A stretch of 32,000 bases of DNA, from the NCBI RefSeq assembly GCF_051307035.1, contig NZ_CP195536.1, positions 1,290,001 to 1,322,000 on the forward strand, written 5' to 3'. The notes below the pieces were generated by a model. The model was not told the DNA's origin. It made no database searches and saw nothing but the letters and a program-made list of their open reading frames with translations. This DNA is from Psychrobacter sp. DM4. Lineage in GTDB: Bacteria > Pseudomonadota > Gammaproteobacteria > Pseudomonadales > Moraxellaceae. Made by a program: the position numbers and the translations under genes. Numbering within the stretch: position 1 is the stretch's first letter; each line of letters begins with the position of its first letter. Below, in pieces: positions 11,840 to 25,772 of the stretch.

Positions 11840-13021
11840 TTAAACTCTAAACATAGCAGCTGTAGGTTTTAAACCAACGTAAGCCATACCTGCTTGAGTC
11901 AGCCAATGAGGCTGAATAATGCCATGTTGCAAAATGGCATGAACATCTCGATGCGCTCTCTCTATTCTATGTTTTTTGTACAAAGAGGCGGTACCTGCTG
12001 CCGCATAAATCTCAGAAACCATGGTACGAGCATCTGTAGCTGCCGAGCAAGATGCAGCCCAAACATCTGCAAGCTGCTTATCAGAAAAGGTATTTTTATT
12101 GTTAGCCTCTATCCACAGGGTCTCAACGCTATTGTGTAGTTGCAAACGATTTGAGGCGAGTAGTGTCCTACTTTTGGCTATTGTTGACTGTACGGTTGCT
12201 CGATCACGCAGATCTGGGTTCTTGCCTGGTGTCACCTTTTCTAGACACAGATCTGTCAAATCATCGGTTGCAGCTTTTAGCACGCCTAATGCCATTGCTG
12301 CACAGCCCGCCGCATTTATACAGCCAATAGGCAAGCGATTGTAAGCGCTATCAACGACAACTGGACTATCGAAATCGACCGCATATTGAGACGTTACAAA
12401 TGCTTCTTTTACGACCACATCGTGACTGCCAGTACCCTTTAGACCACCAACATCCCAAGTATCTATGATTTCGACCTCTTTTTTTGGAATAAAGAATAAC
12501 TTTAGAGTCGTGCTAGGCCCTAATGTTTTTGGGGATTCTTCTGATAGCACCAAACATCGCAATACAAACCAATCTGCCAATTCGCAACCAGATACTAGAG
12601 TCCATCGACCAGATACCAGATACCCGTTAGGGACTATCTGCGCGGTACCTTCAGGACGTGCCGAGTTGGCATAGACGTGAGTGAAGTCCTTATAAACCTC
12701 TCTCATGCTGGTTTCGTCCAAGAAACGCCCAAAAGTACAAGCCAAATGATTGTTCCAAACTATCCAAGCTGCAGAAGCCTCTGCGCTTGCTAGATGTTCA
12801 TAGACTTTTAGGGTTTCTACTGGAGTGTCCTCCCAGCCGCCCAAAGATTTGGGCAAGCCCATTCGGAACAATCTCGTATCTGAGAGACTCTCAATGACAA
12901 CTGGTGCAATTTTTCTAAGGTATTCTGTCTCTTGTCTATGATAAAGCGCTAGATCACAGCAGTCTTGAACTGCATCGGACGGTAGTATGTCCTTGATCTC
13001 AATCTCAAGTAGATCACTCAT
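11840..13021 (-). CDS. Acyl-CoA dehydrogenase-fold protein, probably a group D flavin-dependent monooxygenase type
   Basis: The 393-aa ORF has an ACAD type 2 layout: N-terminal LFRMGLPKSLGG, a mid-region GYLVSGRWTLVSGC, and a C-terminal RIERAHRDVHAILQH in place of the ACAD YEGT motif. The Shine-Dalgarno sequence GAGGGA lies upstream. Confidence 0.7.
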   Translation of the reverse strand: MSDLLEIEIKDILPSDAVQDCCDLALYHRQETEYLRKIAPVVIESLSDTRLFRMGLPKSLGGWEDTPVETLKVYEHLASAEASAAWIVWNNHLACTFGRFLDETSMREVYKDFTHVYANSARPEGTAQIVPNGYLVSGRWTLVSGCELADWFVLRCLVLSEESPKTLGPSTTLKLFFIPKKEVEIIDTWDVGGLKGTGSHDVVVKEAFVTSQYAVDFDSPVVVDSAYNRLPIGCINAAGCAAMALGVLKAATDDLTDLCLEKVTPGKNPDLRDRATVQSTIAKSRTLLASNRLQLHNSVETLWIEANNKNTFSDKQLADVWAASCSAATDARTMVSEIYAAAGTASLYKKHRIERAHRDVHAILQHGIIQPHWLTQAGMAYVGLKPTAAMFRV

Positions 13022-13442: not shown

Positions 13443-13982
13443 TTAACCATGGGTACCGCGGATAGGGTAGTCGTTTTCTCGGATAAAGGACAAGCCATTG
13501 GCAAGCGCTTCAAGCTCAGGTCTTGCAAAAGGAGCGTTTGAGATATCAATAATGTGAATCTCGCCTTTAGCATTAATTACAAATACACCTGGCTCAGCAA
13601 AGGGATGATCGGTTTCTTTTTCTGAACGCGGATCAGAGATATAAAGTCCTAACGTGTTCATCTGCTCAACGGTCAAGCCATAAGCCATCGGGAAGGTGAC
13701 ATCCTCTAGTTCTTCTAAATGCGCTTGCAACTGCTGTTTGCTATCGCCTGATATAGCAAGAATATCTACGCCTGCATCAGCAAATGATTCTTTTACAGTT
13801 TCTAACTGGTTAAGGTATTTGGTGCAGATTGGGCAATGTTTACCGCGATAGACCACTACTAGCTTCCAGTCATGACCGTTTTCAGGCTTACCTAATGTTG
13901 TCATGTCACCATTTAACATTTGTACCTGAATGTCAGGGAATTGACTGCCAGCCTGGAGTTTTTGAGGGTTATTTGATTGCAT
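13443..13982 (-). CDS. Peroxiredoxin-like / AhpC-TSA family thioredoxin-fold redoxin
   Basis: The 179-aa ORF has WKLVVVYRGKHCPICTKYL (a CPxC motif in the AhpC/TSA position). The Shine-Dalgarno sequence AAGGA lies 7 nt upstream. Confidence 0.78.
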   Translation of the reverse strand: MQSNNPQKLQAGSQFPDIQVQMLNGDMTTLGKPENGHDWKLVVVYRGKHCPICTKYLNQLETVKESFADAGVDILAISGDSKQQLQAHLEELEDVTFPMAYGLTVEQMNTLGLYISDPRSEKETDHPFAEPGVFVINAKGEIHIIDISNAPFARPELEALANGLSFIRENDYPIRGTHG

Positions 13983-14082
13983 ATTTTTATCCTTTAAAGT
14001 TTGTGTTGAAGTGATTTAAATTGAACAACTCATTAGTAGAGCAAGGAGTGTTTGCTGACGAACAAATTCGGCGTCAGTCTTT

Positions 14083-14778
14083 TTAAATTTGATACTTGTC
14101 GATAATCTGATCGCTAAGCGTGACCAGATCTGAAGCTGTAACGTCTGGGGTTGGTACATTAACTGCGGGTAACATAGCATTGTGAGGACGTGTGAGAAAC
14201 GCGCCTTGACAACCAGCTGCTTGCGCCCCAATCGTATCCCAAAGATGACAGGCGACAAGACATAAATCAGACGTTTCAACCGATAATGCTTTGGCGACCA
14301 TTTGATAAGTCTCGGGCGCAGGTTTGAACTTTTCTACTGTCTCAACGCTAAACGAGCGCTCAAAGAACGCGCTTAATCCCGCCTTTTCAAGTGGCGTTGG
14401 CGAAGCACTACTCGCGGAGTTAGTTAATGTCACCAGTCTGAATCCAGCATCACGTAGTTTGGTCAACGCTGGCATGGCATCAGGGTGAGCGGGCATCTCA
14501 CTCATAAGCTGCTTAAACTCGTTAATATCTTGGTCAGTCAGCGTAATCTTGTGAATATCAGCCGTCATCTTTAAGGCACCAACACCAAGCTCACCAAAAG
14601 GTGTATACAGACTAGATAAGGTCATAGCTTGCGAATAAAGCACCAATTGCGCGAACCATTCTCTTAATATGTTCTCGTCACCAAATAAGCGAGCAAACAA
14701 AGGCGCAAGTGTTTCGATATCGAGTAGAGTCTCATTAACATCAAACACGATAACTGAAGGTAACGGAGTAGAGGACAT
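14083..14778 (-). CDS. HAD-superfamily hydrolase, type II haloacid-dehalogenase-like
   Basis: HAD motif I is VIVFDVNETLLD. The protein also has VTLTNS, EKFKPAPETY and a C-terminal cap typical of type II dehalogenases. The track start at 14784 is TTG; the ATG at 14778 has the Shine-Dalgarno sequence AAGGA 6 nt upstream. Confidence 0.78.
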   Translation of the reverse strand: MSSTPLPSVIVFDVNETLLDIETLAPLFARLFGDENILREWFAQLVLYSQAMTLSSLYTPFGELGVGALKMTADIHKITLTDQDINEFKQLMSEMPAHPDAMPALTKLRDAGFRLVTLTNSASSASPTPLEKAGLSAFFERSFSVETVEKFKPAPETYQMVAKALSVETSDLCLVACHLWDTIGAQAAGCQGAFLTRPHNAMLPAVNVPTPDVTASDLVTLSDQIIDKYQI

Positions 14779-14876
14779 ATACAATCCTTCTTATCAAGGT
14801 GAGATAGTACGAATAAGAGTCAAGTTAGTAATTAGAGTCACAACTATTACGCTATTTGGTTTCACTCTAAACGATA

Positions 14877-14892
14877 TTGAGCGTTCATTCAA
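14877..14892. promoter_or_regulatory. Degenerate copy of the TTGAGY-N4-RCTCAA palindrome (S1)
   Basis: TTGAGCGTTCATTCAA. The right half matches the motif at 5 of 6 positions. The site lies 23 bp from S2, upstream of the HAD gene. Confidence 0.35.
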
Positions 14893-14899
14893 GATAAAT

Positions 14900-14915
14900 T
14901 TGAGCATTCACTCAA
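14900..14915. promoter_or_regulatory. Candidate TetR operator S2
   Basis: TTGAGCATTCACTCAA, 122-137 bp upstream of the HAD start codon. Confidence 0.55.
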
Positions 14916-15326
14916 TGTAAAAGGCTAAAAAAGGCATGCTATGGGACAGGACTCTTTTTTGCCACTCCTTTGATAAAAATAGACGCTTAGAAGACTTGTC
15001 TTACTGTTTTTACCTTACTATTTTTACCTTTGAGCCGTCTAAAAAATAGGCTCTGTTAGTGACATAATCGAATATCAAACACGCCCTAGTATCACTGTAG
15101 TATTTACCGTCTTATTATTTAAAGTACCTAAGGCCACTTCGCTTACCGCTGAAATAGTCTAAAAAACTGGGATCTTTGCTCTGTACTGACTACTTATATT
15201 CTAAGTACGTCTGAGCATTGGTAACGACGACCAGTACTCGTTTGACCCAACACAGCTAGCTAGAACCAATAGCCTAAGCATCTTTAATAAACTTTAACTG
15301 GACTGTTATAGCGAGTCAAGATAAAA

Positions 15327-15342
15327 TTGAGTAATCACTCAA
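15327..15342. promoter_or_regulatory. Candidate TetR operator S3 (autoregulatory position)
   Basis: TTGAGTAATCACTCAA, about 60 bp upstream of the TetR ATG at 15403. The flanking CAAGATAAA(A/T)TTGAG is shared with S2. Confidence 0.55.
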
Positions 15343-15402
15343 ATTGTACCGCTGTACTTGTCTCATTATTTGTGGTCACAGCTTTTAGCATCAGGATTTA
15401 CT

Positions 15403-16011
15403 ATGTCACGAACTACTTTATACAATCGTCATGAGGCGTTAGAGCGCGCTATAGCCCTATTCTGGCACAAAGGCTTCCATGCCACCTCGCTAAAGGATAT
15501 CGAACAAGCCTTAGATATGCGTCCGGGTAGCATTTACGCCGCTTTTGGCAATAAGGATGGCTTGTTTCAAGAAGCGCTGGATTATTATGCGCAGTCCTCA
15601 CTCAATGAGCTTGAACGTATACTCGCCACTCATCAGTCGCCTTTGTTAGGATTAGCCGCTTTTATGCGTCAGCTTGGCGGTATTCGTGACAAGGGATTAC
15701 CTAGTCGGGCTTGTATGCTGGTCAAAAGCTTACTAGAGCTTGGCGTACGCGAACAATTAGCCTTAGATAAGGTCGAAAAATTACTAGCGGGCATGGAGGC
15801 GCGTTTTGCCGAGTGTTTTGCTGAGGCGCAGCGATTAGAGGAGTTAGATGATACCCTTGATGCGACTAGGCTGGCGCGTCGATTACAGGCTGAGGTAATG
15901 GGTTTGCGTGCCTTCGCTCAGCGTGATGTTGAGAGTTCTGCGGTGCATGAGCTCGCTGAGGATATGGCATTATCTTTAGAGGCGCTGCAAATAGACGCTA
16001 ATAAGATATAG
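15403..16011 (+). CDS. TetR/AcrR-family transcriptional regulator
   Basis: The N-terminal helix-turn-helix reads ALERAIALFWHKGFHATSLKDIEQALDMRPGSIYAAFGNKDGLF. The track start at 15358 is TTG; the ATG at 15403 has AGGA upstream. Confidence 0.85.
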   Translation: MSRTTLYNRHEALERAIALFWHKGFHATSLKDIEQALDMRPGSIYAAFGNKDGLFQEALDYYAQSSLNELERILATHQSPLLGLAAFMRQLGGIRDKGLPSRACMLVKSLLELGVREQLALDKVEKLLAGMEARFAECFAEAQRLEELDDTLDATRLARRLQAEVMGLRAFAQRDVESSAVHELAEDMALSLEALQIDANKI

Positions 16012-16213
16012 ATATAGATAGAGTTAGACTCAATTAAAAAACCACGATTATTATGTCTACGAGTATACCCTCTAATCATCTAAGACAGTAAAGGCTAAGA
16101 GCAGCGTGACATTGATCATGGTCAACTCGCCATATAGTCTTAATAATAGCAGTCACTACCGTGAACTGTCGTAGTAATTTTCTAGTAGTGATCTGCTAAA
16201 GGACATCTGCGTT

Positions 16214-16618
16214 CTAAGGTAGTGCGCGTTTTTTGCCCAAAGTTAGTGTGTCCCAATCCCTCATCAAAAACAAGGCAATACAGGCTGATAGCATAGGCCA
16301 AGCTGCAAAAAATAGTAGATTGTCAAAGGGCTCAAGGTACAAACCAAAACTGGATAGAGTAGAGGCTGCATGGAACAACAAAACGGCACTATAGGTCCAT
16401 ACTTTAAAAAGTCCTGCGACAAACAGTACAATAAGGATTAACTGGACACTACCTATCATATAGATGGCCGTGTTCCCCATATCTTCAAAGCCGTAAAACT
16501 TAGAAAATAATCCTGTGGTGTGTTCAGGATTTATCAGTTTATCGAGCGTCCAAAATAAGAAAACGACAAAAATCCCTAGTCGCAGTAGCAATAAAGAGAG
16601 CGGTAAATGTTTTGGCAT
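16214..16618 (-). CDS. Small four-helix integral membrane protein, DoxX-like
   Basis: The 134-aa ORF begins LSLLLLRLGIFVVFLFWTLDKL, which resembles the DoxX N-terminus, and has about four hydrophobic spans. The family assignment is tentative. Confidence 0.5.
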   Translation of the reverse strand: MPKHLPLSLLLLRLGIFVVFLFWTLDKLINPEHTTGLFSKFYGFEDMGNTAIYMIGSVQLILIVLFVAGLFKVWTYSAVLLFHAASTLSSFGLYLEPFDNLLFFAAWPMLSACIALFLMRDWDTLTLGKKRALP

Positions 16619-16764
16619 AAGGAGTAACCCTTTAATATGTTGTGATTACAAGTTCAGAGCAATAGGGTAAGTAGAATGAGTGCCAATAGTCGATTAGGTA
16701 TCATGAGTAAACCGCGTCTCATGCAATGACTGTCGTTCTCAAAGACTATCGTTCTCCCAACAAG

Positions 16765-16794
16765 AATGCCGCCTAAAAATTTTTAAGCGGCATT
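16765..16794. terminator. Hairpin between the AhpD-like and DoxX-like genes (possible partial terminator)
   Basis: AATGCCGC-(14 nt AT loop)-GCGGCATT. The T-run on the minus strand is weak (CTTGTT). Confidence 0.35.
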
Positions 16795-16840
16795 GATAGG
16801 CTATCGAAGGCATTATGGCAACGCTTAAGTCGCCGTACTA

Positions 16841-17395
16841 TTAGCCCGCTTTATGCCACTCAAATTTCTCAAACGGCTTATCCACTGGGGTATTAGCAAG
16901 ATGGTTGGTGTAGTTACTCATCACTTTTTGCGCCGCACCTAGCACCACTTCTAGCACTTGACGCTTGGTGAAACCTGCATCTAGGAATGCTTGTACAGCC
17001 GCATCATCGACATGACCGCGATTACGAACTACTGATAGAGTGAAGTCACGTAATGCTTCTAGTTTTTTTGTTGGAAGTGGTGTCTCATCACGTAACGCAT
17101 TAGTGATAGCATCATCGACTTTCATGCTTTTGGCGATGCCAGTATGAGCGGGTACGCAGTAATGGCACGCATGTTCAACGTTGATGGTTTGCCATACCAC
17201 AGTGGTCTCATCATCATCAAAGCTGCTATCTAAGAACAGTTGATGTAGATGCTGATAGCCTTCTAATAGTCCTGGTGCTTCAGCCATTACCGCATGCAAA
17301 TTTGGAACCATGCCAAAGGCTTTGATAGAGACATCGAGTAATTCTTTGCTATCGGCAGGAGCTGTTTCTTTGTTATGTAATGTAAAATCGGTCAT
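16841..17395 (-). CDS. Carboxymuconolactone decarboxylase / AhpD-like alkylhydroperoxidase family protein
   Basis: The 184-aa ORF contains the AhpD-core CxxC motif EHACHYCVPAHTG. The Shine-Dalgarno sequence AAGGA lies 6 nt upstream. Confidence 0.82.
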   Translation of the reverse strand: MTDFTLHNKETAPADSKELLDVSIKAFGMVPNLHAVMAEAPGLLEGYQHLHQLFLDSSFDDDETTVVWQTINVEHACHYCVPAHTGIAKSMKVDDAITNALRDETPLPTKKLEALRDFTLSVVRNRGHVDDAAVQAFLDAGFTKRQVLEVVLGAAQKVMSNYTNHLANTPVDKPFEKFEWHKAG

Positions 17396-17502: not shown

Positions 17503-17531
17503 ACTATAAATCATTTTGAGCAATCGCTCAA
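17503..17531 (-). promoter_or_regulatory. Candidate sigma70 promoter of the AhpD-like gene, overlapped by operator S4
   Basis: On the minus strand, the -35 TTGAGC (plus 17526-17531) is followed by a 17-nt spacer and the -10 TATAGT (plus 17503-17508). Confidence 0.4.
17516..17531. promoter_or_regulatory. Candidate TetR operator S4
   Basis: TTGAGCAATCGCTCAA, with perfect 6-bp arms. Confidence 0.55.
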
Positions 17532-17538
17532 TTTATAT

Positions 17539-17554
17539 TTGAGTGATTGCTCAA
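17539..17554. promoter_or_regulatory. Candidate TetR operator S5
   Basis: TTGAGTGATTGCTCAA, 23 bp centre-to-centre from S4. Confidence 0.55.
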
Positions 17555-17725
17555 ATATTTGTAACGGCTGTTTGTGTTACTGATAGTTTATGACAGCTCA
17601 AAGCGTTTCAACTACTCATGTAACGGCAGGGGGTTTAAAAATGAAAATATTGGGGCTTATTGTTAAACATTGTAGAGTGTAATAGCGGCATGAAGAATGA
17701 GAATAAAAGCTCGGTATTGGTATAA

Positions 17726-18469
17726 TTACTTTTTATTGTCTTTTTCTATAGTGGCCAAAAATGCGGCAAACCCTTCACTTGCTCGAGCTTGTAAGCGGCT
17801 GCTAGTAGTCACGCGGACGCGGTTACTCCAAGTAATTACGTAATTTTTCTTCTCAAATTTTTTAACTAAATCCACATCTTCATGGCATTGAAGGGCTGCA
17901 AAACCCCCAACAGCAATATAGGTCTCACTACTAAAGCTTAAGTTTGCCCCATGAATATGACGATGGTTCATTGTGTCTTGGTAATGAGCCAAATAGTCGT
18001 CACGCGTTTTAGGTGTCAGATGCGCCCAGCTATCGACACTGACTACGCCGCAAATCATATCAGTAGATTGGCTATTAATAGGCAGGTCAGTGATATGAGC
18101 CATTTGCTGCTCTAGCCACTCTGTAGCTACTAGAGTGTCGGCGTCAGTGCAAGCGATCCAAGTTGCACCCTGAGCGATTGCATGACGAACTCCCAAATCA
18201 CGCACCTGTCCCACACACCGATAATCACAGCTTATATAATCGATCCCAGCATCTTTGACTAACGATAGCGTGTCATCGGTGCAGCTATCTAGAACCACTA
18301 GCGTATTGACAGTAATGGTTGAGGGTAACCGTTCAATCGCAGTTTGCACTGATGCCAAACAATCGCTGATAGTCAACTCCTCATTGTGCGCAGGAATAAC
18401 AATAGCGATGTTCATATTAGGCGCGTCTTGTTTGTCTGTCTGATATCGCTTATCTGTGTCATCTATCAT
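17726..18469 (-). CDS. Small soluble family-2 glycosyltransferase (GT-A fold)
   Basis: The N-terminal NIAIVIPAHNEE..LVVLDSCTDDT and the DxD motif CTDADT are present. The preferred start at ATG 18469 forms an ATGA overlap with the upstream stop. The track's longer start at 18514 would overlap the upstream gene by 49 nt. Confidence 0.78.
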   Translation of the reverse strand: MIDDTDKRYQTDKQDAPNMNIAIVIPAHNEELTISDCLASVQTAIERLPSTITVNTLVVLDSCTDDTLSLVKDAGIDYISCDYRCVGQVRDLGVRHAIAQGATWIACTDADTLVATEWLEQQMAHITDLPINSQSTDMICGVVSVDSWAHLTPKTRDDYLAHYQDTMNHRHIHGANLSFSSETYIAVGGFAALQCHEDVDLVKKFEKKNYVITWSNRVRVTTSSRLQARASEGFAAFLATIEKDNKK

Positions 18470-19263
18470 GTTAGGTTTTCTTGCATAGCGACGGACGCAG
18501 GGGAGTGCTGCCAAATATCTAACAAAAAATCGCTATCAATAATCTGACTCTGATGCGAAAAGGCTAAGTGTTCTGTGTGATTAGCTGATACATTGAACGC
18601 TTGCTGCAAGCGTTGGTGCACTATATCTCCCGTCATATCAAAACCATCGATAGCATAGCGCCAATGACAACAGAGTAAAGTACCGTCTACCGCTAAGTTT
18701 TGTTTCACCCACAAGATGACACTATCAACATCAGCGGGCGATAAGTAATATAGAATCTCGCTGATGACGATTAAATCAAAAGCCGTTTTATTAGTGAGAC
18801 TAGTGTCTGACAAAGGATAAGCGTACAGAGGTGACTCTGCTAAAGTCGATAAGGCATGAGGAATAATGCCATGTATCACCTTGATATGTGACAAGGCTTT
18901 CAGGCGTTGTTTGGCATGTTGTACTGCATTGGCGTTACCATCTATACTGACCAATGCCTGACAACGGTGCGCAAGGCATTCACTAAACACGCCATTACCG
19001 CAGCCCAATTCAATAGCGTTGTTATACTTAGCTTGTGGCAATACCGCAAGACACATATCGCGTTTTCGCTTTTCATACCAGCGGGTCTGGTACTGCCAAG
19101 GATCGCTACTGTCGCTATACAATGCATCAAAATATGTCTGTGAGTAGGCACCGGATTCAGTGCAGTCTATTGAGGTGGTATAAGAGGTATTTGAGCCGTC
19201 ACTATTATCTGTTTCAGGGTGGTCGTGACTCATTACCGTTGTAGATCTAGGATTGCAGCTCAT
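18466..19263 (-). CDS. Class I SAM-dependent methyltransferase, NodS-like
   Basis: SDPWQYQTRWYEKRKRDMCL..AIELGCGNGVFSECLAHRCQALVSIDGNANAVQHAKQRL follows the NodS-family pattern (DPW ... E-x-GC-x-x-G-x-F ... ID). The start at 19263 is preferred because the Shine-Dalgarno sequence GGGAGG lies 9 nt upstream. The track's start at 19377 lies deep inside the upstream gene. Confidence 0.75.
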   Translation of the reverse strand: MSCNPRSTTVMSHDHPETDNSDGSNTSYTTSIDCTESGAYSQTYFDALYSDSSDPWQYQTRWYEKRKRDMCLAVLPQAKYNNAIELGCGNGVFSECLAHRCQALVSIDGNANAVQHAKQRLKALSHIKVIHGIIPHALSTLAESPLYAYPLSDTSLTNKTAFDLIVISEILYYLSPADVDSVILWVKQNLAVDGTLLCCHWRYAIDGFDMTGDIVHQRLQQAFNVSANHTEHLAFSHQSQIIDSDFLLDIWQHSPASVAMQENLT

Positions 19264-20083
19264 GCAAATAAACCTCCCAAGGTTGACTGATTCTAGCGAT
19301 GGTTTGTGCTGATAAAATGGGCGGATTGCCTGTACTCTGATCGGTGCTAATTTGACTGGTAAAGCAGGTAATGGCATGAGACTTACGCCGTACTTGCTCG
19401 GCAGTTAAGTCCACTCTGAGAGCGAGATGCCAAGGAACCCGGCTATCAGCAGGTTTAGCCCAGTGCCATGCCCAGATCAAGACTTGATAGCAGGGTAAAT
19501 GATGCAGCTTGGCATAGGCTTTGACGACTTGTCCTGTAGCCTCATGATCAGGATGTCCATCATGAACAAAGGGCGTCACCAAAATATCGTTAGGACGGAT
19601 AATGGTTGCTAGTTTTTTCTTAAACAATTCTCGCTCGGCGAACACCTTACCATCAGTGAGCTTAAGAGTAATAGTGGATACTTGAGGCGCGACACCAAGC
19701 GCTTTTAAGGCGTTCATGCTTTCTTGCGGGCGAATAGTATTGAGGCGCTCTGGTGGATAAATCTCTGAGTTTGGATGGCTTTGAGTGCCATTGGTTACGT
19801 GTACAAGGAGGATGGGGGTGCCATTAACGGCTAAATGCTGGAGCAAGCCGCCACAGCCTAGTATCTCATCATCAGGGTGCGGGGCAAAAATACATACTCT
19901 CGTAAGTGCTGTGATGTTTATCGCTATATCTAACGGCGGTAAATTGTGCAGTTCTTGCCAGTTCTGCCATGCGTCTTGACTGGTTCCATCCCCTTCAATC
20001 ACACGATCACCAACAATCGGATGGTCGTGTTTGATAACACTATCTTTTAGAGACTCAATATTACTAGGTATTATAGTTGCCAT
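19247..20083 (-). CDS. PIG-L / LmbE-family zinc de-N-acetylase
   Basis: The family motifs FAPHPDDEILGCGG and HDGHPDHE (zinc ligands) are present. The Shine-Dalgarno-like AGGGA lies 5 nt upstream. Confidence 0.85.
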   Translation of the reverse strand: MATIIPSNIESLKDSVIKHDHPIVGDRVIEGDGTSQDAWQNWQELHNLPPLDIAINITALTRVCIFAPHPDDEILGCGGLLQHLAVNGTPILLVHVTNGTQSHPNSEIYPPERLNTIRPQESMNALKALGVAPQVSTITLKLTDGKVFAERELFKKKLATIIRPNDILVTPFVHDGHPDHEATGQVVKAYAKLHHLPCYQVLIWAWHWAKPADSRVPWHLALRVDLTAEQVRRKSHAITCFTSQISTDQSTGNPPILSAQTIARISQPWEVYLHELQS

Positions 20084-21192
20084 ATATATCCCTGCCCGTT
20101 TGTTGCATCGCCTGATAAGCGATTGGCTGATTCACTAGTCAGCTCGCCAATTTTTTGTAGATCAAAAGCGCCATGACTTTGGCGAATAAACACAGGCAGA
20201 TCGGCGGCCAGTCTTGCAAAATGTGCATTATTACAAAATGGCGCAGCGCCCAATGCTTGTCCGACACTCTCTAGCACTTGCCTTGCTACTTGCTCAGTGC
20301 TTGCTCTGAGTTGGCGAATAGTCAGCTCATGGCTATGCTGCGGCTGGGCGTCAATGACGCGCGCCATATGATGAAAGGACTGCTGAGTCGCTGCTAATGC
20401 TATGCTGATTTGACCTAAATACATCGCCTTATAATTACAAGGTTTTTGCTGATAGGCAAGTACCAAGTAATCGGCCAAAGAAATAGCGGCTCCATACCAG
20501 CAAGCGGCCACCCCAGCGGCTCCATGCCAGAATCCTGCTCTATTTAAATAGGCATTCGCTGTGCCTACTTGCTCAGCTGTAACTTTATTAAACTGTACTA
20601 TGGCTGTATCAGTGGCTTGCATACCGACTGCTTGCCAGCCCCTATAATCACTCTCAATGCCCTCTTGCTGCATATCGACCAAAAGCAGCTGCGCATGACC
20701 GTTCTTGTCTCGATAGCTCATTAGCCCATAATCGACAATAGCTGCGCCTGAACACCACGCCTTGGTGCCATTCACTATGCCATGCTGACTAAATTTGTCT
20801 TGCTCAAAGCTGAGGGGATGGCCCTCTGCTGCCCAAACCGCAAGCAGTCCCTTAATAGGTTTATCGTAGCCTAGTTCCTGCAGTATACTTAGCGCATCTA
20901 AATGAGATTCAAACCATTTGGCAAGTGTCAAATCAACGCCGGCGACATAAGCTAAGATTTGCCAGCGCTTAAGTGTATGAGCAAGTAGTTCGTTCTCGCT
21001 GGTAGGATGTAGGACATTCTCACTATGCGTAACCAGGATATATAGTATGTCACAGCGCAACTTATCAGTAAGATTACGCGTACTTCGCGCCTGATAATCA
21101 GCGGCTATTTTTCTTTCTACAGCCGCTTTTATAGTCTGCAATAAAGGGTTTTTTACAATCACTATAGTGTGCTCCCAGTTATGCTTATCCAT
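20071..21192 (-). CDS. Acyl-CoA dehydrogenase-fold flavoprotein of unknown substrate
   Basis: The 373-aa ORF has a mid-region KAWCSGAAIVDYGLM and WQAVGMQATDTAIVQFNKV, typical of the ACAD beta-domain. The C-terminus reads DLPVFIRQSHGAFDLQKIG where canonical ACADs have IYEGT. Confidence 0.72.
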   Translation of the reverse strand: MDKHNWEHTIVIVKNPLLQTIKAAVERKIAADYQARSTRNLTDKLRCDILYILVTHSENVLHPTSENELLAHTLKRWQILAYVAGVDLTLAKWFESHLDALSILQELGYDKPIKGLLAVWAAEGHPLSFEQDKFSQHGIVNGTKAWCSGAAIVDYGLMSYRDKNGHAQLLLVDMQQEGIESDYRGWQAVGMQATDTAIVQFNKVTAEQVGTANAYLNRAGFWHGAAGVAACWYGAAISLADYLVLAYQQKPCNYKAMYLGQISIALAATQQSFHHMARVIDAQPQHSHELTIRQLRASTEQVARQVLESVGQALGAAPFCNNAHFARLAADLPVFIRQSHGAFDLQKIGELTSESANRLSGDATNGQGYIWQL

Positions 21193-22783
21193 TCAATTTA
21201 TGAGCAGGGTCTGTATGAGCGCAGTCCCCAGATATGCTTTTAGTTTGAGACTTTTTATTGCTATATAAATCCTCTAAAAAGTCTTGCTGCCAGGCGTGAA
21301 TATCATAGTCCTGTAACCCTGCTAACAGCGTTTGATGACGATCTTTTCGTTCTGAGAGCGGCATCATCAGGGCGATCTTTAAGCCTTGTATCATACTCTT
21401 AGTCTGATGTGGATCTATTGTGACCGCTGCCTGCATTTGTGCAGCGGCTCCAGCATATTTGGAGAGTAATAGAACGCCAGGATTATCAGGATTTTGCGCT
21501 GCGACATATTCCTTGGCAACCAGATTCATGCCATCTTTGAGCGAGTTTACCCAGCCAATATCGCTTTGCCAAAACGCTCTCATCAAGCTGTCATGGTTGA
21601 GTACCTTTTCGCTATAAGCAATGGCTTGCCTTTGATGTGTTTGACAGTCTTGAGTACCGTTATGAATACAGCTACTGGGTAATAAGCTGTGATGACTACT
21701 TTTGACCATTTTTTTGACGTCATCATAAAGCTGCTGATAAACAGGTAAATCTAAGCGGCTTGGGCATGCCACTTGTAATAGTTGCAACTGATTTTGATAA
21801 ATCGGGTACTGCTGAAGAAAATGGACATACGCTGAGAAGCGCTCCAACAAACCTTTAGAGTAATCAATCCTATCTACTGCTATGATTTGCTGCGCTACTG
21901 ACTTAATAGCCTTGTTGTCAGGGTTAGATGTTGGGTTTTTGCAAGATAAATGACGAACCCGATTTTGGATTTTGTTTACATTGATGCCAATAGGGTAAGC
22001 CTTGATACTCAGGCAGTGCAGCGGTGCTAAACTTGTATCAACTCTAAAGTGAGTTCTATCGGATTTTATAGTCCTAAAAGAGCTTTGCTGGATATATGGG
22101 AGGGTTGAGGACGAAAGTCTTGGTCGGGTCTTTATAGTGCCTTTCATGTAATATTTTAACACGTCAACACCATTGGCTTTATCTTGTTCAGTTTGTGTAC
22201 CAAGCACATCATAATGAGCAAGATGCTCTATTAGCTGCCCACTTTGAGCAAGCTTTTGCCACAATAGAAGAGGAGCAAATGGGATGTGCAAAAAAAAGCC
22301 GATACGGTTTTTTATACCAAGTTTGCGGCAATAATAAGCCACGCTCAAAAAGTGATAATCATGTACCCAAATCACATCATCTGGCTGAACAACCTTTTGT
22401 AATTGCTGAGCAAAAAGATGGTTCACCATCTGGTAACCTGCATAATCATCATCGGCTTGACTCACCAAATCAGGGCGCTCATGCAGTAATAGCCACAGTA
22501 CACTATTAGCAAAACCACAATAAAAGTGCTGGTATTGCTTGCGTGTGAGCGCTGTGGTCACATAGGTAATGTCTCTATCTGCTGCACGTGTTGATATCGT
22601 CCGTTTACTCGTACCAAATGCGTTGATAGTATCATCACAAGCGTCGATAACCTTACCATTCCAGCCCATCCAAATTACTGAGTTACCTACCAATATATCG
22701 TCTAATGCTACGGCAAGGCCGCCTGCCGCCTGTGCATCATCAGGCATTTTTACTCGATTAGATAAGACGATTAATCGGCTCAT
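21185..22783 (-). CDS. otsA: Alpha,alpha-trehalose-phosphate synthase (UDP-forming), GT20
   Basis: MSRLIVLSNRV...AGGLAVAL, IWVHDYHFL, RIGFFLHIPF, VDRIDYSKGL and KDGMNLVAKEYVAAQ all follow the OtsA pattern. At 532 aa it is longer than the ~474-aa E. coli enzyme. Confidence 0.9.
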   Translation of the reverse strand: MSRLIVLSNRVKMPDDAQAAGGLAVALDDILVGNSVIWMGWNGKVIDACDDTINAFGTSKRTISTRAADRDITYVTTALTRKQYQHFYCGFANSVLWLLLHERPDLVSQADDDYAGYQMVNHLFAQQLQKVVQPDDVIWVHDYHFLSVAYYCRKLGIKNRIGFFLHIPFAPLLLWQKLAQSGQLIEHLAHYDVLGTQTEQDKANGVDVLKYYMKGTIKTRPRLSSSTLPYIQQSSFRTIKSDRTHFRVDTSLAPLHCLSIKAYPIGINVNKIQNRVRHLSCKNPTSNPDNKAIKSVAQQIIAVDRIDYSKGLLERFSAYVHFLQQYPIYQNQLQLLQVACPSRLDLPVYQQLYDDVKKMVKSSHHSLLPSSCIHNGTQDCQTHQRQAIAYSEKVLNHDSLMRAFWQSDIGWVNSLKDGMNLVAKEYVAAQNPDNPGVLLLSKYAGAAAQMQAAVTIDPHQTKSMIQGLKIALMMPLSERKDRHQTLLAGLQDYDIHAWQQDFLEDLYSNKKSQTKSISGDCAHTDPAHKLNG

Positions 22784-23730
22784 GACTTTGATCTCAGTGT
22801 ATTTGAGTTCATTGATACAGGACTATCTGGGTGAGAGAGGAGAGACGCTTGTGCTTGAAAAAACTTCAAAAAATGATGGAGTAAGACGACAACGTCATCA
22901 GTATCATGCAAATAAAAGCGGGCGTAAGTAGGCTCTTCACCTACCTTGATGCCCATACCCTTTGTCAAGTGTTGATAGTAGTGCTCAGATTTACCCTCCT
23001 TCTCGTCAATGACGCCGCTAGGATTCTGCACAGCCAAAAACCCTGCTTCATCCGTAATATCGTCACCCAAAAAAATAGGACAAAGCGTATCAACAGCTGG
23101 TAGTCCTTGTAGCAAAGTTAAAATCGCTGTACCTTTGTTCACGCCCTCTGGGACTATCTCCCAAACAAACTTACCTTGTTTTAAGCACCAATTAGGATAG
23201 TTATTGCTCACCTTTTCCATGAGATTATAAGCGACATCAGCCAAGGCAGGGTTTTGGCGATAGTGCAAAGCAACAGAGTAAGGTTTATCCTCCAAAGTAA
23301 AATCAGCATATGGCGCGCACAGTGCAATAATGATCTGCTTTATATCATTGAGCTCACTGGGGTCGACAGGTACAGCGGTCGTAGACTCATCATTATTAAG
23401 GCTACTATTTAAGCCGTTATTGGGTACTATCTCTAAACCATGCGTAGCTGCTATTGGCAATACTAAGGGCGATAGCATCTTTTGTGCCTCAACCAGACTG
23501 CGACCTGTGACAACCGCAATGCTAACACCCAAGCTCTGTATCTGTTGCAATAGCGTCAAAGTGGTGATGGGAATAATGCTGTCTTTTGGGTCAAGGGTAA
23601 AGGTAGCCAGTGTACCGTCTATGTCCAAAAACAGACAGTACTTCTTATTGTAAGATAAATGGTCAGCGATTTTGTTTGGCTGAAGGTGTATAGGCGATGT
23701 ATTTACGCTAGAGTCAGGTGCAGGAGTCAT
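22780..23730 (-). CDS. otsB: Trehalose-6-phosphate phosphatase (HAD IIB)
   Basis: LFLDIDGTLATFTLDP (motif I), VVTGRS and FLGDDITDE (motif IV) are present. The Shine-Dalgarno sequence AAGGA lies 6 nt upstream. The stop forms an ATGA overlap with the otsA start. Confidence 0.88.
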   Translation of the reverse strand: MTPAPDSSVNTSPIHLQPNKIADHLSYNKKYCLFLDIDGTLATFTLDPKDSIIPITTLTLLQQIQSLGVSIAVVTGRSLVEAQKMLSPLVLPIAATHGLEIVPNNGLNSSLNNDESTTAVPVDPSELNDIKQIIIALCAPYADFTLEDKPYSVALHYRQNPALADVAYNLMEKVSNNYPNWCLKQGKFVWEIVPEGVNKGTAILTLLQGLPAVDTLCPIFLGDDITDEAGFLAVQNPSGVIDEKEGKSEHYYQHLTKGMGIKVGEEPTYARFYLHDTDDVVVLLHHFLKFFQAQASLLSHPDSPVSMNSNTLRSKS

Positions 23731-24402
23731 ATTTATTCCTTTAGTAGAACGTGACGTCAGAGCTAATACGATGAAGGGTTGTAATGAGATATGTGTAGAT
23801 TAGGGCGTGTTTTATCAGTCGACCGTAATACTGACAGAAGCTATTTTTTAGACAATACCATTAAAAACAGCAAGTTTAGATATTCTAAGCGTCTACTGTT
23901 GACAAGTAGGTGGAAAAAACAGTCTCTGTCTGTGTACTTATACTACGTTGTAAACCGAGTTAAAGCACGAGCATTACCGTCGTTTTAGGCTTGGTCTGGA
24001 ACAGTTTTGGTAATCAGCGATGCCTACTCGCGAAAGATCAAACACGCTTTGAGTATTTATGGACAAAATAGCACAAAACTTGTAATAAGTTTGCCACAGT
24101 GCACAGGCAAAAATACGCAATGGCGTATAGATTTTATTAGTATTAGTCCTTTAATTCAATAAACTCTAGTTTGACAATTTGAGTATAAACATACTTATTG
24201 TTAGGAGCATAAGAGAGCTGACACCGCGTCTGGTTACAATCAGATCGTCACATAACTTCTTGCGCAGATGATGAATAGACACCTTTGTTGCACTAAGCGT
24301 GGGTCGTTCCACTGATCTTTTTTAACTGTATAACGCATTATTGATAGTAAGGAAGATGACGATATGAGCATCCCTCCCAGCTCACAGCTTATTGACGTAT
24401 TT

Positions 24403-24432
24403 ATTTAATAGTAATATTAATTACTATTAAAT
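24403..24432. promoter_or_regulatory. Perfect 13-bp inverted repeat (30 bp total) overlapping a candidate promoter upstream of the beta-oxidation operon
   Basis: ATTTAATAGTAAT-ATTA-ATTACTATTAAAT. TTGACG at 24392-24397 followed by a 17-nt spacer places a -10-like TATTAA at 24415-24420, at the dyad centre. Confidence 0.4.
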
Positions 24433-24518
24433 AAATATCGATTGCAACCCTATACTTACTATCCTAGTATATGACCTATGATTTGGTGGATAGGAGCGAT
24501 GACCAAGCTCGATATTAG

Positions 24519-24534
24519 GGTAATTATAATTACC
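24519..24534. promoter_or_regulatory. Perfect 16-bp palindrome 87 bp upstream of the ACAD start codon
   Basis: GGTAATTATAATTACC is fully self-complementary. Confidence 0.3.
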
Positions 24535-24620
24535 ATTTATTTTAACGCTTGGTATTACCGCTGCTTTGTACTGCAAAATATTTCTATTAGCACAAGCTAA
24601 CATCGCCAAGGATAAAGGTT

Positions 24621-25772
24621 ATGAGCATTGAAAATTTAGCCCCAAACTGGATGACTGAAGAGCGTAAAATGGTCTATGAGAGTGCGCTTAAAATGTTTCA
24701 AGGCTGGGAGCCAAATGATGAGAAATGGCGTAAGAATGGCATGATCGATCGCAAGGCTTGGGAGGAGGCTGGCGAGAACGGTTTTTTATGTGCCTCAATG
24801 CCCGAAGAATATGGCGGCGGCGGCGGCGATTTTCGTGATGAAGTTGCGATTATCTATGCACAAGCAGAATCTAATCAGTCAGGTTTTGGCGGTATCGTTC
24901 ACTCAGGCATCGTAGCCCCCTATATCTTAGGTCATGGTACTGATGAGCAAAAACAAGAGTGGCTACCCAAAATGGCGACGGGCGAGTATATCGCAGCCAT
25001 CGCTATGACAGAACCTGGCACCGGTTCTGATTTGCAAGCGCTTAAGACTTACGCGGTAAAAGATGGCGATGACTACATTATCAATGGCTCAAAAACTTTT
25101 ATTACCAATGGTCAGCATGCTAATTTGATTGTGGTAGCCTGTAAGACAGACCGTGACAAAGGCGCTCAAGGTGTCTCCCTTATCGTCGTAGAGACTGATG
25201 CTCTAGAAGGATTTGAGCGCGGTCGTAATCTCGATAAAGTTGGCCTGTCGTCACAAGATACCTCAGAGCTTTTCTTTAGTAATATGCGTGTACCACAAAA
25301 GAACCTGCTCGGTCCGATAGAAGGGATGGGCTTTATTCAGATGATGCAAGAGTTGCCGCGTGAGCGCTTGATTATTGCACTGACAGGTATCGGCGCGATG
25401 AAGCTGGCTATTAATCTGACTCTTGATTATGTCAAGCAACGTGAAGCCTTTGGCAAACCCGTTTGGAGATTTCAAAATACCAAATTCAAAATGGCGGAGT
25501 GTTATGCCAATTATCTAGCTGCTCATAGCATGTGTGATCTGGCGATAGATGCCATCATGGAGAATAGACTGTCTATTCCTCATGCCTCATTGATCAAATA
25601 CTGGGTCACTGAAAAGCAGTGCGATGTGATCGATGAATGTGTGCAGTTATTCGGTGGTTATGGTTATATGAATGAGTATCCTATCGCCCGTCTATACGCT
25701 GATGCGCGGGTGCAAAAAATCTACGGCGGCACCAACGAGATTATGAAAGAGCTAGCTGCCCGCTTTATGTAA
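24621..25772 (+). CDS. Acyl-CoA dehydrogenase, LCAD-like
   Basis: The 383-aa ORF has EEYGGGGGDF, AMTEPGTGSDL, INGSKTFITNG and the C-terminal KIYGGTNEIMKEL, which carries Gly at the usual catalytic-Glu position as in long-chain and isovaleryl type ACADs. The Shine-Dalgarno sequence AAGGA lies upstream. Confidence 0.92.
   Translation: MSIENLAPNWMTEERKMVYESALKMFQGWEPNDEKWRKNGMIDRKAWEEAGENGFLCASMPEEYGGGGGDFRDEVAIIYAQAESNQSGFGGIVHSGIVAPYILGHGTDEQKQEWLPKMATGEYIAAIAMTEPGTGSDLQALKTYAVKDGDDYIINGSKTFITNGQHANLIVVACKTDRDKGAQGVSLIVVETDALEGFERGRNLDKVGLSSQDTSELFFSNMRVPQKNLLGPIEGMGFIQMMQELPRERLIIALTGIGAMKLAINLTLDYVKQREAFGKPVWRFQNTKFKMAECYANYLAAHSMCDLAIDAIMENRLSIPHASLIKYWVTEKQCDVIDECVQLFGGYGYMNEYPIARLYADARVQKIYGGTNEIMKELAARFM

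Follow-up and report, generated by a model that had tools for sequence, protein, structure and literature searches.

The question raised by this locus is what the enzymes encoded directly behind the trehalose genes otsB and otsA of Psychrobacter sp. DM4 produce. In the window analyzed here, i.e., the whole stretch of 32,000 nucleotides (nt) from position 1,290,001 to 1,322,000 of contig NZ_CP195536.1, a first-pass annotation had described a unit of three genes (17726-20083) for a small soluble glycosyltransferase of family GT2, a PIG-L/LmbE-family deacetylase, and a NodS-like class I S-adenosylmethionine (SAM)-dependent methyltransferase. All three open reading frames (ORFs) were confirmed on the minus strand (GT2, 17726..18514; PIG-L, 19247..20083; methyltransferase, 18466..19377; with adjusted starts, GT2 17726..18415 and methyltransferase 18466..19263), but the real unit consists of four genes, since a gene for a flavoenzyme with acyl-CoA dehydrogenase (ACAD) fold (20071..21192, minus strand; hereafter ACAD-like) had been overlooked. 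Arranged in the order ACAD-like, PIG-L, methyltransferase, and GT2, this cassette is a self-contained, horizontally mobile four-gene unit. The best explanation as a whole, held tentatively and put just short of an even chance, is that an N-acetyl-hexosamine glycoside would be made, deacetylated, N-methylated, and oxidized by the flavoenzyme, yielding a soluble protectant beside trehalose.

The unity of the cassette was deduced from its distribution. An exhaustive search with the methyltransferase resulted in 2624 cluster representatives, 1059 of them below 1e-10, and domain architectures were read from the best 150. In addition, a scan of one genome per species with an alignment of 12 methyltransferase sequences revealed relatives in at least 578 species representatives, from which 80 loci were fetched and their ORFs searched with the proteins of the window. 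In about 80 of these 80 loci, i.e., in essentially every locus that was long enough, the four genes were found on one strand and in the fixed order ACAD-like–PIG-L–methyltransferase–GT2. Since the same genes appear in the same order in loci from distant taxa, their adjacency is not due to chance, and since the ACAD-like gene is present, first, and on the same strand in nearly all of them, it has to be regarded as an invariant member. Carriers belong to the Gamma- and Betaproteobacteria, with Psychrobacter, Acinetobacter, many Pseudomonas, Xanthomonas, Pseudoxanthomonas, and Burkholderiales, and to Actinomycetota ranging from Microbacteriaceae to Micromonospora and Nocardiopsis, in which PIG-L and methyltransferase are fused; two Burkholderiales loci had the GT2 gene first rather than last. 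Regarding the 150 best cluster representatives, the methyltransferase stood alone in 93, was joined to PIG-L in 52, occurred as PIG-L–methyltransferase–GT2 and as methyltransferase–GT2 in two each, and as ACAD–PIG-L–methyltransferase in one (P0205). In all fusion proteins, the order of domains equaled the order of genes in the window. Plasmid-borne copies were also found, including those of Deinococcus and Rubrobacter and those on plasmids of clinical Acinetobacter species, and several Deinococcus species, among them D. radiodurans, carry the cassette on secondary replicons. A census of immediate neighbors over non-redundant loci revealed no universal fifth partner, transporter, or regulator, and full-text literature searches yielded no paper assigning a function to the cassette genes.

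Two deviating copies were noted. On the secondary replicon of D. radiodurans (L082, 1178-7582), the ACAD-family protein comprises 779 amino acids (aa), and its ACAD N and C domains were recognizable in the second half only. Here, PIG-L and methyltransferase genes are separated by an opposite-strand gene for a DEAD/DEAH helicase, and no glycosyltransferase is annotated nearby. A contig of 956 nt from a Cloacibacterium metagenome-assembled genome (MAG) of the Bacteroidota (L017) carries a cassette fragment 40% identical to the methyltransferase of the window, reflecting either a binning artefact or a transfer.

This conservation bears directly on the scheme of three enzymes as first written, in which the ACAD-like gene would be an unrelated neighbor. 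Though three enzymes suffice to convert N-acetylglucosamine (GlcNAc) via glucosamine (GlcN) to N-methyl-GlcN, the scheme is contradicted by the conservation and fusion of the ACAD-like gene, which is first in the cassette in nearly all loci across phyla, overlaps the PIG-L gene in the window, is fused to PIG-L and methyltransferase in P0205, and is kept in a Rubrobacter variant with another deacetylase (see below). We consider it extremely improbable.

In the window, six minus-strand ORFs follow each other from 23730 down to 17726 with near-zero spacing, namely otsB, otsA, and the four cassette genes. The string is headed by otsB for trehalose-6-phosphate phosphatase (22780..23730; PF02358, 87.5 bits; TIGR00685, 120 bits, exceeding the cut-off of 68), whose junction with otsA for the GT20 trehalose-6-phosphate synthase (21185..22783; PF00982, 288 bits; TIGR02400, 423 bits, not reaching the cut-off of 565) reads as an ATGA overlap in the window sequence. 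Between otsA and the ACAD-like gene, there is an overlap of 8 nt, or a gap of 22 nt if GTG 21162, the start used by the database protein P0270, is the true start. The ACAD-like and PIG-L genes overlap by 13 nt. The ORF of the methyltransferase is over-long and reaches 19377; ATG 19263 yields a protein of 265 aa equaling database protein P0001 (100% identity) and a 17-nt overlap with the PIG-L gene, whereas ATG 19233 would leave a 13-nt gap. The GT2 ORF extends to 18514 and offers ATG 18469, in an ATGA overlap with the methyltransferase gene, or ATG 18415, 50 nt apart from it. The latter is likelier, since ortholog N-termini begin with M..I.V.IPAHNE and since the gap between the two ORFs in the remaining Psychrobacter loci usually amounts to 25–118 nt. 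The non-Psychrobacter loci checked showed a 4-nt overlap at this junction. Of the translational coupling proposed earlier for the three genes, that of methyltransferase to GT2 is therefore only possible, because the GT2 start is ambiguous.

About 170 nt past the GT2 stop, a terminator-like scan detected a near-perfect palindromic hairpin (17515..17555; 17-bp stem, 7-nt loop), which, as a pattern match, is a possible bidirectional terminator closing the operon; it was scored as terminator-like on the plus strand, and a shorter core of six pairs (17516-17531) was scored on both strands. On the other side, a non-coding stretch of about 890 nt upstream of otsB (23731..24620, minus strand), which harbors no ORF of 80 aa or more, presumably represents the promoter or regulatory region of the six-gene string. 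Promoter-like matches upstream of otsB were no commoner than in shuffled sequences, and an Rfam search of the window matched no family.

Profile hidden Markov model searches placed methyltransferase, deacetylase, and glycosyltransferase in PF05401 (NodS), PF02585 (PIG-L), and GT2 above the respective cut-offs, as had been predicted, and the motifs named for them, i.e., HPDDE and HPDH in PIG-L, TDxD in GT2, and DPW plus E.GC..G in the methyltransferase, proved to be real and invariant across orthologs from several phyla.

For the methyltransferase, NodS was the best Pfam family (PF05401, 53.4 bits vs. a cut-off of 24), with the protein of the window covering profile positions 14–93 only and its orthologs 14–150. 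A profile of the family (A1) aligned with the NodS structure 3ofj at 104 bits (6e-29) over nearly the full length (16–193 on NodS 22–208), followed in the PDB by phosphoethanolamine N-methyltransferases with at most 55 bits and, further down, gentamicin N-methyltransferases with about 36 bits. Searching the PDB with the single sequence, only gentamicin (aminoglycoside) N-methyltransferases were detected besides 4ISC and NodS. The best solved relative, 4ISC (6e-30 with the single sequence, 3.5e-71 with the profile), is an ortholog deposited merely as 'Methyltransferase', and no paper naming it was found in the literature. Conserved motifs comprise DPW, RWYExRKR, E.GC..G, FDLIVxSE..YYL, and CHWRH. 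The NCBIfam equivalog for NodS (NF041650) was missed with 70 bits vs. 300, genuine annotated nodS genes in the plasmid collection matched at only about 30% identity (1e-11 to 1e-14) and ranked below cassette-type homologs, and neither the window nor any of the 80 loci contained nod genes (nodABC). The earlier description as NodS pattern stands insofar as NodS is the closest characterized relative; by its profile scores, the enzyme is a member of the NodS Pfam family and the nearest sister of NodS, not its ortholog. Named relatives among the matches listed are from Psychrobacter, at 60–74% identity. In methyltransferases of this genus, about 21 aa are inserted (AL..LAESPLYAYPLSDTSLTNKT; window 18790-18870, residues c. 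130–150), which the other 33 aligned family members lack. Public names of the family, such as 'class I SAM-dependent DNA methyltransferase' and 'Tellurite re…', look misleading.

The deacetylase matched PF02585 with 93.8 bits (gathering cut-off 28.2). Since its HPDDE (H69, P70, D71, D72, E73) and HPDH (H177, D179, H180) motifs as well as D175 were invariant in 20 orthologs, including zinc ligands and the catalytic Asp, the zinc site looks intact by sequence; its loss would have spoken against the proposed deacetylation. The nearest solved structures were archaeal diacetylchitobiose deacetylases and TT1542, and among the NCBIfam models neither BshB1 (best, 60 vs. 182 bits) nor BshB2 (41 vs. 195) reached its cut-off. 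A plasmid of Rubrobacter indicoceani (L083, 4954-9605) carries a variant in which a CE4 polysaccharide deacetylase (PF01522, 92 bits), a member of the NodB-type family unrelated to PIG-L, is encoded first, followed in this order by an ACAD-like protein, a NodS-like methyltransferase, a Pyr_redox_2 FAD oxidoreductase, and a GT2, so that the oxidoreductase gene separates those of methyltransferase and GT2. By hhalign, its ACAD-like and GT2 proteins were recognized as homologs of the cassette families (99.5% and 99.9%), and the CE4 enzyme in the PIG-L slot is, by its family assignment, a non-orthologous displacement. Together with the frequent PIG-L–methyltransferase fusion, this displacement gives the idea that a sugar amine is first freed and then methylated its strongest computational support. 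A protein of 546 aa with no Pfam match comes after this variant cassette. Another deviating protein, of 1026 aa, is encoded on a plasmid of Sulfitobacter indolifex (L084, 5405-8485), with the annotation 'trifunctional glycosyltransferase/class I SAM-dependent methyltransferase/polysaccharide deacetylase'. The surrounding cluster is of exopolysaccharide (EPS) type and encodes an ABC transporter, a sulfotransferase, and a GT4 besides a flippase-like gene; the protein is a distant NodS-like relative and probably part of a different system.

The same evidence bears on whether an amino sugar is involved at all. PIG-L could instead be an amidase or esterase whose substrate is an acetylated compound other than a sugar, and the methyltransferase could act on another nucleophile, in which case the cassette would serve to modify or detoxify a different small molecule. 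The PIG-L family also contains the amidase Mca, the methyltransferase lies far under the NodS equivalog cut-off, and its ortholog 4ISC carries no functional name, all of which would suit such an activity. Yet a carbohydrate deacetylase replaces PIG-L in Rubrobacter, a glycosyltransferase is invariably present, and NodS is by far the closest characterized relative of the methyltransferase, so that we regard this possibility as very unlikely.

The glycosyltransferase matched PF00535 with 55.4 bits (gathering cut-off 23.3) and displayed the invariant motifs PxxNE, DxCxD, TDxD (T90-D91-x-D93), HGAN, GGF, ED, and TSxR. Cassette enzymes of this type are minimal GT-A proteins of 215–230 aa. Depending on the start, that of the window comprises 229–247 aa, with a maximum KD(19) of 0.93 and no hydrophobic segment, and matched a PgaC/IcaA-type model with 22 bits vs. 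422; a NodC-like or other processive membrane synthase was rejected on these grounds. Its best curated matches were small-molecule glycosyltransferases, namely an MftF-like family (44 vs. 182 bits) and GpgS, all far below cut-off. Using the single sequence, no match was found in the PDB, and the profile resulted in generic GT-A matches only. A sequence scan detected no hydrophobic segment in any of the four cassette proteins, which are all predicted to be soluble.

For the ACAD-like protein, Pfam recognized only the middle ACAD domain (Acyl-CoA_dh_M, 35 bits), whereas N, M, and C domains were all matched in a canonical ACAD of the same window used as a control. By this three-domain test, the protein does not look like a bona fide acyl-CoA dehydrogenase, and the public name 'acyl-CoA dehydrogenase' looks misleading. 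A profile built from 21 orthologs (A3) hit DszC/TdsC first in the PDB (6.6e-11), then MsuC and DszC (to 5e-9), followed by an ACAD-type-2 entry that its depositors named a flavin monooxygenase, by true ACADs (about 1e-6), and by the nitrososynthase types KijD3, DnmZ, and ORF36 at 2.5e-5 and weaker. An invariant motif, G.K.WCSGA, aligns with FCSGA of DszC, TdsC, and MsuC. The AF2 model (pLDDT 79, pTM 0.81) displayed an ACAD fold. In the C-terminal part, an invariant ADLxVFxRQ(S/H)H falls, in our own reading of a weak alignment, where ACADs have RDxRVF…YEGT, the region carrying the catalytic Glu of most ACADs; a profile of this domain alone gave no significant match in the PDB. Since DszC, TdsC, and MsuC rank first, the CSGA motif is common to them, and a single ACAD domain was detected, a reduced-flavin monooxygenase is weakly favored over a true dehydrogenase. 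The Rubrobacter cassette, with its additional NAD(P)H-flavin oxidoreductase (Pyr_redox_2), is in line with this assignment. Several points weigh against it and thereby against the preferred explanation as a whole. Foldseek retrieved ACAD dehydrogenases and ACAD-fold monooxygenases alike, inseparable at TM scores of 0.6–0.7, the C-terminal domain has diverged too far to be aligned with confidence, a flavin reductase is usually absent from the cassette, DszC-type enzymes oxidize sulfur, and the nitrososynthases rank below them. Two more genes of the ACAD superfamily are located in the window (11840-13021, minus strand; 24621-25772, plus strand), one of type 2 with only the C-terminal domain detected and one canonical with three domains beside a thiolase gene.

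Another question is whether the sugar is modified before or after its transfer. According to one alternative, UDP-GlcNAc would be deacetylated, N-methylated, and flavin-oxidized as a nucleotide sugar, with GT2 acting last, as in natural-product deoxyaminosugar pathways. This order agrees with the position of GT2 as last gene in nearly all loci, with the fusions, which link ACAD, PIG-L, and methyltransferase and carry GT2 only at the C-terminal end, and with the detection of KijD3, DnmZ, and ORF36, enzymes of dTDP-amino sugars, as solved relatives of the ACAD-like protein. It is at odds with the two Burkholderiales loci with GT2 first and with the diacetylchitobiose deacetylases as nearest PIG-L structures; the characterized PIG-L enzymes (PIG-L, MshB, BshB, and diacetylchitobiose deacetylase) act on glycosides and not on nucleotide sugars, which also counts against it. 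On balance, tailoring of a nucleotide sugar appears rather unlikely.

Hints on the physiological context were obtained from the neighboring genes. In all 11 Psychrobacter loci, otsB and otsA are located directly upstream of the cassette, co-directional and overlapping. That the context is otsBA had already been noted, and the association recurs beyond this genus. In eight loci of the P. syringae group, malQ, treY, a DUF2934 gene, and glgX precede the cassette on the same strand, with the glgX stop overlapping the ACAD-like start in one of them (L029). As the upstream genes correspond to the treY/Z operon of P. syringae, i.e., PSPTO_3125-3130 ending at glgX (PMC8982409), the cassette of this organism is probably PSPTO_3131-3134, with the tag assignment inferred; these four tags were not found in the literature. 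A Burkholderiales MAG harbors a bona fide otsA–otsB pair convergent to the cassette. On the Acinetobacter plasmids NZ_CP089048 (L081, 1-16100), NZ_CP032003 (L086), and NZ_CP114602 (L087), with A. ursingii, A. haemolyticus, and A. towneri as hosts, one recurrent stress island was found on different replicons, comprising genes for DUF421, a Haem_oxygenas_2-like iron redox enzyme, and DUF2171, the cassette, an MFS transporter gene, and otsA–otsB. Of the three regions examined, two had a catalase gene, and two were adjoined by xseAB. Insertion sequence (IS) elements break up the island in some copies.

Other stress-related genes accompany the cassette as well. In the P. putida group, it adjoins the non-homologous end-joining genes ligD and/or ku and lies between both in one locus (L070, 3412-10379); ligD/ku neighbor clusters were found in further loci (L013, L015, L042, L047, L054, L055, L061, L073, and L079), and ligD is also a neighbor in two Actinomycetota loci (L030 and L077) and in L032. 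On Novosphingobium plasmid pSA2, catalase and three more glycosyltransferase genes precede the cassette. In A. baumannii, it has been located beside blsA and the DUF2171 gene A1S_2230 (PMC6240043, PMC6330354), and the layout in A. calcoaceticus matches this arrangement. The A. baumannii cassette ACICU_02432-02435 (glycosyltransferase, SAM-dependent methyltransferase, LmbE, and ACAD-related) is unlinked to otsA/otsB (ACICU_00761/00762), and cassette and otsA/otsB are both down more than 10-fold in two colistin-dependent mutants, for which only 33 genes are listed with a decrease of this size (PMC5660220).

Altogether, four independent physical linkages to trehalose genes were identified, three times to otsBA and once to treY–glgX. 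Since they involve two trehalose routes and are joined by one co-regulation datum, a functional association of the cassette with trehalose-centered stress protection is likely, but the linkages do not establish trehalose as the acceptor.

The P. syringae neighborhood, in which the cassette ends an alpha-glucan/trehalose operon (glgA…glgX), would also suit the decoration of a macromolecule (alpha-glucan/glycogen, EPS, lipooligosaccharide, or protein) with a deacetylated, N-methylated amino sugar, as would the three extra glycosyltransferases in Novosphingobium, the distant trifunctional protein with glycosyltransferase, NodS-like methyltransferase, and CE4 domains in the EPS-type cluster of Sulfitobacter, and the strong down-regulation in the colistin-dependent mutants of A. 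baumannii. Against a macromolecular target speak the predicted solubility of all four proteins, the neighborhood census, in which no conserved flippase, polymerase, or exporter appeared, and the minimal GT-A architecture of GT2, the best curated matches of which are small-molecule enzymes, all far below cut-off. We rate it as unlikely.

For the preferred explanation, i.e., a soluble modified glycoside, we infer donor, acceptor, order of steps, flavoenzyme chemistry, and physiological role as follows. In Psychrobacter, the cassette would be co-transcribed with otsBA. GT2 would glycosylate a common cytoplasmic acceptor with an N-acetyl-hexosamine, most likely with GlcNAc derived from UDP-GlcNAc; the leading candidate for this acceptor, as suggested by the recurrent neighbors, is trehalose or an intermediate of the trehalose/alpha-glucan pathway. 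PIG-L would strip the N-acetyl group, and the NodS-like enzyme, often part of the same polypeptide, would methylate the exposed amine. Finally, the ACAD-fold protein may act as a DszC/nitrososynthase-type monooxygenase, with the (methyl)amino group of the product as the most plausible site of oxidation. The resulting soluble amino-sugar glycoside would be made together with trehalose under osmotic, desiccation, oxidative, or stationary-phase stress. Hence, the initial interpretation is partly supported: its sequence of glycosyl transfer, de-N-acetylation, and N-methylation is in line with the PIG-L–methyltransferase fusions and the CE4 variant, but gives no role to the ACAD-fold member.

To the points already raised against this explanation, three have to be added. 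Most cassette-bearing genomes have no trehalose gene within 8 kb, so that trehalose, instead of being the acceptor, may accompany the product through co-regulation; the gene order, with the flavoenzyme first and the glycosyltransferase last, equally suits tailoring of the sugar before its transfer; and sequence and profile of GT2 give no information on the donor, because all matches are generic GT-A. A more specific version, which we regard as doubtful, would define the product as an N-methylated, possibly N-oxygenated glucosaminyl glycoside of trehalose or a related sugar of the glucan pathway. The cassette would then be a mobile four-gene 'add-on' to trehalose protection, traveling together with genes for trehalose, catalase, and DNA end joining in bacteria that tolerate desiccation, e.g., Acinetobacter, Psychrobacter, Pseudomonas, Deinococcus, and Rubrobacter.

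If true, the explanation would reveal that, in many bacteria of widely differing lineages, an uncharacterized pathway accompanies trehalose synthesis under stress. It would extend the few known bacterial protectants by a new class of modified amino-sugar metabolite and provide a function for the structural-genomics orphan 4ISC and for genes misnamed 'acyl-CoA dehydrogenase' or 'DNA methyltransferase'. It would also bear on the desiccation persistence of hospital Acinetobacter and on the epiphytic survival of Pseudomonas syringae, in the group of which the cassette starts immediately after glgX, where the published treY/Z work stops. As the cassette is small, self-contained, and present in the tractable organisms A. 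baylyi, P. putida, and P. syringae, the question is directly testable.

Apart from the operon, the window harbors on the plus strand (5053-11088) a gene for a trimeric autotransporter adhesin of 2011 aa with ESPR signal, YadA head, seven stalk repeats, and YadA anchor. Just downstream of the operon (13443-17395, both strands), a series of genes of redox and stress type was identified, encoding a HAD hydrolase, a TetR regulator, a peroxiredoxin-like protein (AhpC/TSA), a small membrane protein whose only match, to MauE, was weak, and a protein of 184 aa with no Pfam match.

Finally, the cassette was compared with known systems. With Nod-factor tailoring (NodC of family GT2, NodB of family CE4, and NodS) it shares the joint encoding of a GT2 and a sugar N-deacetylase with a methyltransferase from the Pfam family of NodS, and in Rubrobacter even a NodB-type CE4 deacetylase. 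In contrast, its GT2 is minimal and soluble, whereas NodC is a membrane chitin-oligosaccharide synthase, its deacetylase is usually of the PIG-L type, a flavoenzyme of ACAD fold is added, and the acyltransferase NodA is absent. A Nod-factor locus was rejected based on the absence of NodA, a NodC-type synthase, and nod context and on the missed NodS equivalog. With mycothiol and bacillithiol biosynthesis, in which MshA/BshA is followed by MshB/BshB, the cassette has in common a glycosyltransferase and a PIG-L/LmbE zinc deacetylase freeing the amine of a GlcNAc-glycoside. Here, the differences are that its glycosyltransferase is an inverting GT-A enzyme of family GT2 and not a GT4, that no cysteine ligase is encoded, that the amine is presumably methylated and not acylated, and that a flavoenzyme partner is not known from those pathways. 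Bacillithiol, mycothiol, and N-methyl-bacillithiol pathways were rejected, as GT4 and cysteine ligase are missing and the equivalog scores fail. The ACAD-fold N-oxygenases KijD3, ORF36, and DnmZ and the enzymes DszC, TdsC, and MsuC resemble the ACAD-like protein in fold, and DszC, TdsC, and MsuC also in the G.K.(W/F)CSGA motif, but E-values are modest, orthology is not given, dTDP-sugar genes do not occur by the cassette, and the C-terminal domain has diverged. Judged from these sequence comparisons, the cassette belongs neither to the Nod-factor system nor to mycothiol/bacillithiol biosynthesis, and it resembles both, the former in its NodB/NodS steps and the latter in the opening by glycosyltransferase and PIG-L.

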